Source: an uncultured Methanosarcinales archaeon
GTDB taxonomy: Archaea; Nanobdellota; Nanobdellia; Woesearchaeales; CAZKBD01
Assembly (NCBI GenBank): GCA_964550945.1
Contig: CAZKBD010000003.1
Span: 1-54,789 of the forward strand
Reading direction: 5' to 3'
DNA: 54,789 bases
Positions 18,001 to 21,000 of this stretch are shown here, one piece after another; within the stretch, counting starts at the first letter, position 1; the number at the start of each line of letters is the position of its first letter. Made by a program: the position numbers.

Positions 18001-21000
18001 GCACTGGTTAGGGCTCACCGTTTCATCCTTTCCTTTAAGAACGTCTGCTTGTTATCTTGCTTTTGTCGCCAAAAGCTTCGAGAGCATCATTCTCCTTAAA
18101 GGCGGTCTCGTTTCTGAGTGGTTGCCTTCCATTACTGGAACTCGTTAAGTAACCTTTTTGAAGTGGGTGGACTTTCCTCGGTTAATGAATAACCGGTAAC
18201 TAAGCTCCTGCCCTGCAGCTTTAAGAAATTATTAGTGATTTATAAGCATTTCTATTTCTTTTGCTATATCCTTTGATTCTGAGACATTATATTTCATCTT
18301 CTCTACCAACCTTTTTAGTTGCGCAATTGTTCCCATAACAAGAACATCTGACTCAGCAACAGTACAATTTACAGCCCCATTGTTAACAGCAGCATCAGCT
18401 CCAACTGATAAAGCCTCTTGTTTCAGGATATTGGCCATAGCATTTCTTATTCCATAGAGTTTAATCCTTCTAAACCTGCCTTTTGGCAAAAGGATAGGCA
18501 TTGCTCCCTTATTCACACCAATTGCCTTCAGTTCTTTTTCAACATCTTCTTCTTTAACAAATTCAGCTTGTTTTTTCATGTTTGTTCACCTTCATCAGGA
18601 AATACCCTCCAACAGCAATCATAAACAAATTCAAAATCTGGCCTAAAGTCAGACCAAAAATAAAGCCAATCTGGGAATCAGGAGCCCTGAAGAACTCAAT
18701 GAAGAACCTTAGGATCCCATACATAAATACGAAAAGCCATAACAAAAAGCCCTTGGCTAGCCTTTTCCCTTTAAGATTCCACAGAACAAAAAATATCAAT
18801 AGGTTTTTCAAGGACTCATAGAGCTGGGAAGGATGCCTGCATCCAGAATGACCCTTAAAATTAACGCACCAAGGAACATTAGTTTCTCTGCCAACAAGCT
18901 CACCATTAATGAAATTGCCTATTCGCCCTAAAAATAAGCCAAAAGCTAATGGGATAACCAAGATATCTGCAAGCTCAAAAAAATCAAATTTCTTCTTTCT
19001 GCAAAAAAACAACAAGGCTGCAATACCTCCAATAAATCCGCCATGAAAACTAAGGCCGCCGTGCCATACTGCAATGATGTCAATAGGGTGGCGCAGATAA
19101 AAGCTGAAGTTGTAAACAAGGATGTAAAACAAGCGGGCTCCAACTATCCCGCTAATAAGCAATAATAAAAATAGATAGTCAATATCATCTACGCTAAGAT
19201 TTATATCTTTCTTCTTGACCAGATGCTTTACCAAGAAGTAGGCTATAACAAACCCTAAGAGCCAGATAATGCCATAATATCTAACTTCCAAGGCACCAAT
19301 CTTGAACAGCACTGGATTGATATCTAAATAAAACATCTAACCACCTTTATCAGTTATTACATAAAAGTATATCCTATTGAAAGCCAAAATAAAATACAAA
19401 ACAAGCAAGGTTATAACAGAGAAAACCAAAGCATAGGCATTATAATAACTTGACATCCAATCGTAAAGAAACCGTTTCAATAAAAAACCGATTATAGAAT
19501 ATAACAAGAAAAATGCAGCAATAAGAAAAACACCAAACCCATAAACAGCTAAGTAGCTGTTTACTTTTGTAAAATGGTATGCTCCTTTCTTGATACTCTC
19601 CTTAATAGAAAATCCGTGAATAAAAAACGAATGGGTCAGGTTTAATAAAGGATAAGCCAGCATTACAAACAAAACAAAGATTATCCTGATTATGATTGTT
19701 TTGTATTCCTGCGATATAACAGAATATACTAATGCAGCTAAAGCAAGAAAAATAGCAAACAGCGAATTAATAATAATAAAATTCAGGCCAAAAAACTCAA
19801 GAAGCCCTTTTAAGCCAAACCTGATGTTCTTTACCACCTTGTTGATAAGATTTAGAATAACAAACTTGCAGAATGAATACACCAGGATGGCTAATAAATA
19901 ATAACCTAGAAGGACAAAGACAGCAGAAGAAGGGTTAATGAAATCTCTAATCAAAATGTTAAGCAAGCCAATGAAGAGCAGAAAAAGAAAGTCAAAAAGA
20001 GACATAAAAACAAATGAGAACGAATTCGTTTTTATATACTTAACAGTCTCTAAAATATCGCTTCTCCACCTCTTTTTTAGCTTATGTTCCACTTAGTAAT
20101 GCCTCAATAACAGCCTTGAATTCAGCTTTCTCAGCTGGAAGGTCGCTTGAATCTTCATAAGCATTTCCAATCCTGTAATACTTGCAGCCAAACACAAATG
20201 TCGGGACAGTATTTTGAGGATTGTATTTTTTGAATACCTCTAATTCATCTTTAGGTATCGCCTTCTCAACTTCTGGTGTTAAAGTATCATCGCCAGCGTC
20301 AAGCTCCCAGTGATACGCAACTATGCTGTCCCCATATTCTTTAACAGTATCGTCAAAAGTAGTTTTGATCCATTTGCAACGAGGGCATGTTGTTGTTGAG
20401 AACAGCCTTATTATCGGCTTTCCGTTTTCAGTACAAACGTTATCTGAGGTTGTTTTGAATGTTTTTATAGCGGAAGCTGCTGTTGGCTTTGTGATAACCG
20501 CTTTGCTTCTCAATTGATCGAGATAACCGGTTATGGCTTTTCCCATATCTTCACTAACTAGCCTTTGTTCATCTATCCTTGCCTCTGACAAGCGCTTTTT
20601 TTCCTCTTGGTTTTTGTCTATTAGTTTGATTATATGGTAACCAAAGTCTGTCTTAACAACATCAGATATCTGGCCTATCTCCAAATCAAAAGCAGCGTCT
20701 TCAAATTCTTTGACCATCTGCCCTTTTGTGAAATAGCCTAAATCACCGCCTTTGATCTTACTGCCAGCATCTAAGGATTTTTCTTCTGCAATCTTAGCAA
20801 AATCAGCCCCTTTTTCCAGCTCTTCTTTTATTTTCTGGGCTTCTTCTGAGCTGTTCACTAATATATGGCTTGCCCTTATCCTTCCAGGCAAGGTTACATC
20901 AGTTTCAGCGAAAACTGTTTTGTTGAGGAGGTCACTTATGGTGATCTGGTTTGTGTAATATCCTCTTATGTAGTCAAGAGTGATTCCCTGGGTTTTTAGC

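Follow-up and report, generated by a model that had tools for sequence, protein, structure and literature searches.

A bacterial-type prolipoprotein diacylglyceryl transferase and its signal peptidase II partner point to a probable pathway of bacterial-type lipoprotein maturation in an archaeon of the Woesearchaeota

Our analysis suggests that a DPANN archaeon of the Woesearchaeota matures its lipoproteins by a working, bacterial-type pathway whose first enzyme is encoded in the window (the whole stretch of DNA analysed, 54,789 nucleotides), a reading to which we would give a probability of roughly 0.55. A working pathway built on Lgt and LspA had been proposed in the first-pass annotation of this DNA, and much of that proposal stands: the genes are intact and archaeal, their lipobox substrates are conserved, and the pair is found in most of the order. 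Two parts of it do not, or were overstated, namely the second Lgt and the supply from the genome's own lipid genes, which is no general link. The features of the window that bear on the argument lie on one strand:

15764..16384, minus strand: candidate lipoprotein substrate with a charged start, a hydrophobic stretch and V-S-S-C at residues 20-23; no Pfam family was found for the product
17255..17611, minus strand: NAC (nascent polypeptide-associated complex), an archaeal/eukaryotic marker; PF01849 57.2 bits, UBA_HYPK 39.6 bits
17663..17869, minus strand: Sec61-beta (SecG/Sbh-type translocon subunit), an archaeal/eukaryotic marker; PF03911 33.9 bits
17852..18214, minus strand: archaeal RNase P RNA; RF00373 133.4 bits (gathering score 84), E 2.1e-38, full model 1-288
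18232..18579, minus strand: ORF of 115 aa without a Pfam or NCBIfam family, sharing 17 bases with the stop end of lgt
18563..19336, minus strand: lgt, prolipoprotein diacylglyceryl transferase, 257 aa, ATG start
19337..20092, minus strand: membrane protein of eight helices, 251 aa, whose stop codon abuts the lgt start codon
20082..21605, minus strand: PrsA/SurA-like parvulin PPIase, membrane-anchored, with a C-terminal thioredoxin-like domain, overlapping the gene of the 251-aa protein by 11 bases; Rotamase_3 94.6 bits, SurA_N_3 55.4 bits, Thioredoxin_2 20.6 bits
21736..22746, minus strand: DsbA/GILT-like thiol-disulfide oxidoreductase, membrane-anchored; GILT 40.5 bits, DSBA 30.8 bits

The product of lgt (g00164) is full length. 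It covers positions 1-238 of the 240 in the LGT family profile PF01790, at 251.4 bits (E 9.8e-75, against 9.5e-76 in the earlier annotation, which had likewise called it a full-length, bacterial-type Lgt), and it passes the equivalog model TIGR00544 at 202.4 bits, where the cut-off is 118.9, in agreement with the earlier annotation. In a sequence alignment, residues 3-246 pair with the E. coli Lgt structure 5azb_A (E 7.7e-45). Equivalents of Y26, H103, R143, N146, E151, G154, Y235, R239 and E243, which we take to be the essential residues of E. coli Lgt in that protein's numbering, are all present, as is that of D129, and the same ten are found in the Lgt of 39 of 39 relatives. R143 and R239 are also named in passages of Hong et al. 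2025 (PMC12462473). Across the window's sequence and its 39 best-scoring relatives, a sample which leans towards well-kept copies because it was chosen by score, 12 functionally important positions are invariant in all 40 sequences, as are 26 of 257 positions overall; the catalytic residues are thus held constant even though overall identity to these relatives is only 38-63%.

The partner enzyme, a signal peptidase II that had also been claimed for this genome, is borne out on a different contig:

C5:45606-45998, minus strand: lspA, signal peptidase II; PF01252 134.7 bits, E 3.6e-39

Its product passes the equivalog model TIGR00077 (107.4 bits, cut-off 73.95) and, as a MEROPS A8 protein, retains both Asp motifs when aligned with the structures of the S. 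aureus and P. aeruginosa enzymes (6ryo_A and 5dir_A). The claim of two Lgt enzymes, on the other hand, survives only as a second family match:

C1:14692-15417, minus strand: second LGT-family match (g00016); PF01790 97.9 bits, E 4.3e-28

This copy fails TIGR00544, with 42.8 bits against a cut-off of 118.9, and where Lgt has Y26, H103, N146 and R239 it carries E, I, C and N. It is a divergent paralogue, a member of the Pfam family and not a second housekeeping Lgt, and its neighbours encode a B12-radical SAM protein and lipobox peptides rich in Cys.

How might such a pathway operate? Secreted precursors would carry a Sec signal peptide ending in a lipobox, with a small residue ahead of the invariant Cys, and would cross the membrane via the archaeal Sec translocon. 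Lgt would then move the glyceryl-lipid moiety of a phosphatidylglycerol-type lipid onto the Cys thiol, after which LspA would cleave the signal peptide right before the lipidated Cys. Considering that the apolipoprotein N-acyltransferase Lnt (TIGR00546) had no match in this genome, which is 92.5% complete, the final product would be expected to be a two-chain anchor, as is known from many monoderm bacteria. The donor lipid may come from the organism's own GpsA, PlsC-like, CarS-like and PgsA-like genes together with scavenged acyl chains, or it may be imported ready-made.

From the genes present in this genome, the most likely donor would be an ester-type phosphatidylglycerol. GpsA scores 396.6 bits against a cut-off of 257, and its cluster abuts archaeal uS2. 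The genome also holds four PlsC-like genes, a CarS-like gene, a PgsA-like gene, and PssA with Psd; the PgsA-like gene lies below its equivalog cut-off (101.6 bits against 109.1), as does the CarS-like gene (126 against 148), whose top model is CDP-archaeol synthase. PlsY was not found in this genome, and no enzyme of the first acylation step was recognised there. The earlier view that Lgt is fed by the genome's own glycerol-3-phosphate lipid genes is in keeping with GpsA and the PlsC-like, CarS-like and PgsA-like genes found here, and fails as a rule for the relatives: a PlsC-type acyltransferase occurs in only 63 of 201 of them, against 184 of 201 for Lgt, so that most Lgt carriers cannot make ester lipids by the PlsC route and the link between Lgt and glycerol-3-phosphate lipid genes is not general.

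The same shortage of PlsC-type acyltransferases among Lgt-bearing relatives speaks for a variant of the pathway in which Lgt would draw on archaetidylglycerol, an ether lipid of archaea, obtained from an archaeal host, and the product would be a dialkylglyceryl thioether anchor such as is known from haloarchaea. Cultivated DPANN do acquire lipids from archaeal hosts, and the CDP-archaeol synthase model that tops the list for the enzyme of the CDP-alcohol precursor would fit such a donor too. We consider this variant possible, if rather unlikely. G1PDH-type and UbiA-type genes were searched for in the genome and none was found, the PcrB match is marginal and partial (24.1 bits) and was not counted as GGGPS, whereas GpsA and the four PlsC-like genes are present. 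Moreover, the active-site residues of this Lgt are identical to the bacterial ones, and the glycerol stereochemistry of archaeal lipids is opposite.

Whichever lipid is used, the genome encodes lipobox substrates for a pathway of this kind. A lipobox scan over 2180 crude ORFs gave 24 matches under a strict rule and 45 under a looser one, against the 22 candidate lipoproteins counted before. About 30 of the matches, chosen by eye and on crude ORFs, are textbook signal peptides, and include ApbE, cupredoxin, cyclophilin, PKD, beta-propeller and GH17 proteins. Under the strict rule, Cys gives 16.3 matches per percent residue frequency, a 2.5-fold enrichment above the next residue (6.4), with polar residues at 0.6-3.5; the looser, PROSITE-like rule leaves Cys only a little ahead, at 30.6 per percent to 25.0 for Phe. 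Each of the 9 close orthologues of ApbE (45-100% identity) has [G/S]-Cys after a hydrophobic stretch, and six distant paralogues are without a signal peptide. Some of the small contigs of the assembly on which candidate lipoproteins lie carry no domain marker of their own.

Could the two homologues instead have been reused, to act on lipids or a few special peptides, with the lipobox-like N-termini serving as ordinary signal peptides or membrane anchors? The weak enrichment under the loose rule would suit such a reading, as would the diverged Lgt paralogue that the same genome keeps in a different neighbourhood and the fact that most genomes have lgt and lspA apart from each other. We nevertheless find reuse improbable, since the catalytic residues are kept in both enzymes and both score above their equivalog cut-offs, since Cys stands out under the strict rule and is retained throughout the close ApbE orthologues, and since Lgt and LspA are kept or lost jointly in sister orders.

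This joint behaviour emerges from the distribution of the two genes, which, as had been noted before, are widespread in Woesearchaeales. Of 201 genomes sampled from the same order, 189 carry Lgt and 183 LspA, shares somewhat above the earlier counts; 173 genomes have both genes, 16 Lgt only and 10 LspA only, and both are present in five single-contig genomes of the order (G016, G025, G084, G096 and G157). A phylum sample, restricted to genomes of high quality and drawn for the most part from that order, gives 184 of 201 for LGT and again 184 of 201 for LspA. Among 47 sister-order genomes, 36 hold both, 10 neither and a single one LspA only; across these orders the two genes are retained or lost as a pair, and the AliA carriers (4 of 4) have neither. 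AliA (DUF63, PF01889) occurs in 0 of the 201 same-order genomes, and DUF63 had no match at E<=0.01 in the genome studied here, the control search being positive for M. jannaschii, H. volcanii and M. acetivorans. This distribution agrees with what Hong et al. 2025 (PMC12462473) tabulate in their supplement, where 7 of 7 Woesearchaeota have 12-60 predicted lipoproteins, 0 AliA and 0 AliB. The order's genomes thus appear to hold Lgt-LspA in place of the archaeal AliA system, and we think it rather probable that Woesearchaeales, together with several sister orders, replaced AliA lipidation with the bacterial pair.

The genomes that carry a single gene of the two might be taken as a sign that lgt and lspA are decaying, non-functional relics of an old transfer. 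This seems very unlikely to us: the reading frames of both are intact and without stops in every match listed for the order sample, the catalytic residues of Lgt do not vary at the identities given above, and 173 of the 201 genomes have both genes.

Both lgt and lspA are genuinely archaeal genes. Within the window, only 350 bases separate lgt from the archaeal RNase P RNA and about 700 separate it from Sec61-beta, uninterrupted by any N, and a single N-free block (17066-43736) holds it together with the RNase P RNA, Sec61-beta, NAC and ABCE1, which upholds the earlier placement of the gene on an archaeal contig; on C5, lspA adjoins archaeal aIF-1A. The host organism is a tiny archaeon from groundwater. 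Its RNase P RNA gene, a marker of the host's domain, stands outside the lipoprotein pathway, and is also all that is covered by contigs from two runs labelled metatranscriptomic (17854-18206); none is listed over the lgt stretch.

In 7 of the 39 loci from relatives, the gene immediately upstream of lgt encodes an orthologue of the 251-aa membrane protein, in which the start Met and ten more residues are invariant across 8 sequences. No Pfam or NCBIfam family could be assigned to this protein, even when 8 orthologues were searched at E<=1, and for its AF2 model (pLDDT 76.7) Foldseek gave nothing from the PDB at E<=1e-3, the top match being CysZ at E 0.6; its Atlas clusters contain unnamed Nanobdellota/Woesearchaeota only, with DUF7847 and GPDPase_memb as weak leads (0.86-0.87). 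Perhaps it is a partner of Lgt. Of the 39 loci, 7 have a relative of the thiol-disulfide oxidoreductase no farther than 1.5 kb from lgt, and just 1 has a counterpart of the 115-aa ORF beside lgt. The PPIase-like product matches PrsA-type NCBIfam models with scores under their cut-offs; PrsA-like, Sec61-beta and NAC genes are near lgt in 0 of 39 relatives, within flanks of 1.5 kb that are too short for a test.

That lgt might be bacterial DNA misbinned or mis-scaffolded into an archaeal MAG, as could be suspected from an assembly of 177 contigs with 2.3% estimated contamination, from three N runs in the window and from nearest non-DPANN sequences that are bacterial (about 40-50% identity), is refuted as far as the sequence data reach by the unbroken link to RNase P RNA and Sec61-beta, by the presence of lgt in the five single-contig genomes, by a GC content that is uniform across the genome's contigs, and by the best 120 homologues, which are 55-88% identical and, where named by NCBI, all Woesearchaeota or Nanoarchaeota.

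What, then, do these genes add to the picture of archaeal lipoproteins? Hong et al. 2025 (PMC12462473, Nature Communications) state, as the first-pass annotation had quoted for Lgt, that no archaeal Lgt or Lsp homologue has been identified; papers on archaeal lipoproteins up to that study report the same lack and read it as archaeal lipids demanding other enzymes. Intact and conserved bacterial enzymes in a large archaeal lineage contrast with that stated absence, and the lineage is the very one to which tables of the same paper assign many predicted lipoproteins and no AliA or AliB; if our reading is true, the Lgt-LspA pair would explain the lipoproteins left unassigned to AliA/AliB. The novelty is limited. 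Literature searches over the main texts of open sources found no report of Lgt or LspA in DPANN, but NCBI and JGI already annotate Woesearchaeota proteins as Lgt, and bacterial-type lipid genes in these DPANN archaea have been published, as passages of PMC6431249 attest. The membrane lipids of Woesearchaeota become a concrete biochemical question: which lipid does Lgt use? If it is an ester-type phosphatidylglycerol, bacterial-type lipids would be present in the membranes of these archaea, and the "lipid divide" would therefore be crossed for protein anchors too. If it is an archaeal ether lipid, this would be a natural Lgt acting on a substrate of opposite stereochemistry. Either outcome would, if true, be new biology.

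Among known systems, bacterial Lgt (5AZB/5AZC; PF01790, TIGR00544; EC 2.5.1.145) stands closest to g00164, which shares its length class, its equivalog match and the residues that we presume to be essential; the lipobox substrates and the LspA partner of the bacterial system are likewise found in the present genome. The differences are that the host here is an archaeon, that g00164 is 41-50% identical to bacterial sequences with a name, and that its gene lies not among the neighbours of bacterial lgt but beside genes for the eight-helix membrane protein, the foldase resembling PrsA and the oxidoreductase resembling DsbA. With bacterial LspA (6RYO, 5DIR, 9EMZ) the signal peptidase has in common the TIGR00077 match and the aligned catalytic Asp motifs, whereas its gene sits beside archaeal aIF-1A, on a separate contig from lgt. 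The closest Lgt outside DPANN are those of CPR/Patescibacteria and other bacteria, a Peregrinibacteria representative being 50% identical, and a search of genome contigs with the Lgt protein returned one locus, in a Patescibacteria MAG, at 38% identity. Yet most DPANN sequences group separately: in a midpoint-rooted FastTree phylogeny, built with no outgroup and with FastTree local supports only, 57 of 60 labelled DPANN Lgt fall into one group, apart from the group that contains all five organism-named bacterial sequences (an organism name was available for only 5 of 20 representatives), while one Patescibacteria Lgt (L059) nests within the DPANN-rich group. Finally, AliA and AliB (arCOG02177/02178, DUF63) of Haloferax volcanii do the same job, in that, according to passages of PMC12462473, they lipidate the lipobox Cys of secreted archaeal proteins and attach archaeol to it; they belong to a protein family separate from Lgt.

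The open reading frame at 18563-19336 on the minus strand starts with ATG, encodes 257 amino acids and is, as the first-pass annotation had it, a full-length bacterial-type prolipoprotein diacylglyceryl transferase (Lgt): the Pfam LGT profile aligns to it over its whole length (positions 1-238 of 240; 251.4 bits, E 9.8e-75), and on TIGR00544, the NCBI equivalog model for Lgt, it scores 202.4 bits where 118.9 are required. Among solved structures it matches E. coli Lgt alone (5azb_A/5azc; query residues 3-246, E 7.7e-45), and the 5azb_A alignment shows the equivalents of Y26, H103, D129, R143, N146, E151, G154, Y235, R239 and E243 (E. 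coli numbering) to be kept. In a set made up of this protein and its 39 best-scoring relatives (38-63% identical), all 40 sequences share the same residue at 12 functionally important positions; over the whole length, only 26 of the 257 positions are invariant. Two rows of the set, loci L016 and L032, were taken from unpublished genomes. R143 and R239 are named as essential for Lgt in Hong et al. 2025 (PMC12462473). That the gene exists, is intact, sits among archaeal genes and is conserved throughout the lineage we regard as solid; its function we infer.

The setting leaves lgt in plainly archaeal company.

Genes around lgt, in their order on the minus strand
21736-22746, minus: DsbA/GILT-like oxidoreductase
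20082-21605, minus: PrsA/SurA-like PPIase
19337-20092, minus: unnamed 251-aa membrane protein
18563-19336, minus: lgt
18232-18579, minus: 115-aa ORF
17852-18214, minus: archaeal RNase P RNA (RF00373, 133.4 bits against a gathering score of 84, full length)
17663-17869, minus: Sec61-beta
17255-17611, minus: NAC

The RNase P RNA occupies the roughly 360 seemingly empty bases between Sec61-beta and the 115-aa ORF, and is all that contigs of two runs labelled metatranscriptomic cover within 17200-21700 (depth about 20-30). As the window has runs of N (17056-17065, 10 bases; 43737-43836, 100 bases; 48649-48658, 10 bases) and is thus a scaffold, linkage claims are kept inside N-free blocks: an ABCE1/RLI-type gene shares the uninterrupted block 17066-43736 with lgt, and the typical archaeal S13-S4-S11-RpoD-L18e-L13-S9-RpoN cluster (7663-11520) lies across a 10-N gap from it. 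GC is uniform (0.32 to 0.41 over 177 contigs), the DNA runs containing the lgt stretch are groundwater metagenomes, and the best 120 homologues in a public protein collection are 55-88% identical, all those named by NCBI being Woesearchaeota or Nanoarchaeota; the name Woesearchaeota is applied to the organism here on the basis of these labels. The lgt gene really is archaeal.

Several neighbours deserve a remark of their own. The 251-aa protein has eight helices, and its stop codon directly adjoins the start of lgt. Seven of the 39 relatives (loci L011, L014, L015, L017, L021, L025 and L032) have an orthologue immediately upstream of lgt, with D34, F37, Y64, Y72, S73, K76, N104, Y233, R240 and Y244 invariant. 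Searches returned neither a family nor a fold match for it, and it could be an undescribed Lgt partner. Further along, at 35737-40152 (minus), a pair of MacB_PCD+FtsX permease genes lies with an ABC ATPase gene and an unnamed 415-aa ORF, a two-permease-plus-ATPase layout reminiscent of LolCDE/MacB-type transporters. The archaeon also carries a Peptidase_M23 (lysostaphin-type endopeptidase) gene at 24981-25571 (plus; 62.3 bits), a bacterial type of cell-wall hydrolase that may be relevant to the food source of these cells.

The same genome (1.97 Mb, 92.5% complete, 2.3% contamination) encodes the signal peptidase II, LspA, on contig C5 at 45606-45998 (minus), next to aIF-1A. It scores 134.7 bits on Peptidase_A8 and 107.4 bits on TIGR00077 (cut-off 73.95), aligns to three LspA structures, those of S. 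aureus and P. aeruginosa among them (E 1e-21 to 8e-20), and keeps both catalytic Asp motifs. The claim of two Lgt enzymes is not supported: the LGT match on contig C1 (14692-15417; Pfam 97.9 bits) reaches only 42.8 bits on TIGR00544 and has the equivalents of Y26, H103, N146 and R239 replaced by E, I, C and N. We treat it as a putative specialised paralogue and not as a second Lgt. Its neighbours are a B12-binding radical SAM gene and genes for three small proteins, each opening with a lipobox-like signal that leads into a Cys-rich run; together with the paralogue (C1 about 11736-15480; locus L058:3737-7481), these may constitute a special lipidation system. Neither Lnt, the apolipoprotein N-acyltransferase, nor an AliA-type DUF63 protein was found in this 92.5% complete genome.

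How general is the pair?

Occurrence in 201 genomes of the same order, the present one included
LGT: 189 of 201 genomes; 145 of 152 high-quality genomes
LspA: 183 of 201; 143 of 152
DUF63/AliA: 0 of 201; 0 of 152

Both Lgt and LspA occur in 173 of these genomes, five of them single-contig. Of the rest, 16 have Lgt alone, 10 have LspA alone and 2 lack both. A second sample of 201 high-quality genomes from the phylum (the present genome, 153 of the same order and 47 of other orders, labelled 'same class') yielded LGT in 184, LspA in 184, AliA in 4 and a PlsC-type acyltransferase in 63. Since the 47 genomes of other orders mostly have both enzymes (36) or neither (10; LspA only in 1, Lgt only in 0), and all four AliA carriers (G221, G239, G242 and G311) lack Lgt and LspA, the two bacterial genes go as a pair and their distribution is the complement of AliA's, in counts drawn from related, non-independent genomes. 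The tallies include four unpublished genomes (G111, G120, G131 and G182), whose omission shifts each count by at most 4.

To place the enzyme, we built a tree (FastTree, LG+gamma, 256 columns, midpoint root, no outgroup) of 211 sequences: the window protein, 38 from the same order, 21 from sister orders, the 150 best cluster representatives and a single Patescibacteria locus. A 133-tip group holds 57 of the 60 labelled DPANN sequences, and a 78-tip group comprises 76 representatives and 2 DPANN sequences. Of 20 representatives looked up, 5 carry an organism name (Parcubacteria, Peregrinibacteria, Pasteurella, Sericytochromatia and Rickettsiales); these 5 are all bacterial, and all fall within the 78-tip group. 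The Patescibacteria Lgt (L059) is nested in the DPANN-rich group and two same-order sequences (L009 and L026) fall in the bacterial one, hints that CPR bacteria and DPANN archaea may have exchanged the gene more than once. Provisionally, the tree would agree with an old transfer from bacteria, after which descent was mainly vertical, with a few later exchanges; midpoint-rooted, it points to no donor.

Candidate substrates were sought at the N-termini of 2180 crude ORFs. A strict lipobox rule ([LVI][ASTVI][GAS]-Cys preceded by an uncharged stretch, N-terminus basic) gave 24 matches and, per residue frequency, a score of 16.3 for Cys; when other residues were substituted for Cys in the rule, Leu came second with 6.4 and polar residues reached 0.6-3.5; a looser PROSITE-like rule gave 45, with a small Cys enrichment (30.6 vs 25.0 for Phe). 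The canonical charged-hydrophobic-lipobox shape was picked by eye in 31 matches, one of which lies within the window (15764-16384). Pfam assigns 11 of 24 candidates scanned to families typical of extracytoplasmic proteins and 13 to none, the families being ApbE, cupredoxin, cyclophilin, PKD, beta-propeller, Calx-beta with GH17, PLD, PsbP-like, DUF192 and DUF6438. The ApbE candidate has matches in 15 of 61 genomes of the order: all nine close orthologues (this genome's own included; 45-100% identity) have a hydrophobic N-terminus ending in [G/S]-Cys, and the signal peptide is absent from six distant paralogues among these 15 genomes. An odd one among the candidates scanned, a Memo+AMMECR1 fusion (contig C12:12998-14425; L065), is of a usually cytoplasmic kind, yet bears a textbook lipoprotein signal peptide.

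Lgt was also said to be fed by the cell's own glycerol-3-phosphate lipid genes. Lipid gene clusters of bacterial type do lie on archaeal contigs of this genome. Contig C19 (L055:1294-7528) encodes FabG, an acyl-CoA dehydrogenase with Etf, two PlsC-like proteins and GpsA (396.6 bits, cut-off 257) beside archaeal uS2; contig C21 (L056:1095-6258) has CarS-like, PlsC-like, UgtP-like glycosyltransferase, PlsC-like and PgsA-like genes beside FtsZ; and contig C147 (L050) carries a fused PgsA-like/PssA gene with Psd. Searches of the genome found no PlsY, UbiA-type or G1PDH-type gene, and only a marginal PcrB match. Given these genes and no G1PDH or UbiA, self-made ester-type phosphatidylglycerol is plausible. 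However, the PgsA-like and CarS-like genes score below equivalog cut-offs, no first-step acyltransferase was recognised in the genome, and about two thirds of Lgt-bearing relatives lack any PlsC-type gene; the link to Lgt is thus kept as a hypothesis for this genome alone. Published work already describes GpsA and PlsC of bacterial type in Woesearchaeota/DPANN (Coleman et al. 2019, PMC6431249; Castelle et al. 2021, PMC8204110).

The statement ascribed to the field does appear in Hong et al. 2025 (PMC12462473), who report having identified no Lgt or Lsp homologue in archaea. Our searches, whose scope ended short of subscription journals and of preprints after October 2026, found no papers linking Lgt or LspA to DPANN except those denying it; public annotation pipelines already name these proteins Lgt. 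We see moderate to good interest here, because the Woesearchaeota Lgt corrects a current statement of the field and makes the membrane-lipid question in this lineage testable. Hong et al. also describe lipoproteins as prevalent in DPANN, and some archaea as rich in predicted lipoproteins without AliA and AliB. Their tables give seven Woesearchaeota 12/42, 12/42, 20/49, 60/117, 35/86, 37/100 and 26/64 lipoproteins/secreted proteins, with 0 AliA and 0 AliB in all seven and likewise in 24 of 25 Pacearchaeota, and list AliA in Nanoarchaeum, Aenigmarchaeota, Nanohaloarchaea and most Micrarchaeota. In the Woesearchaeota, it is the Lgt-LspA pair that fills this AliA/AliB gap.
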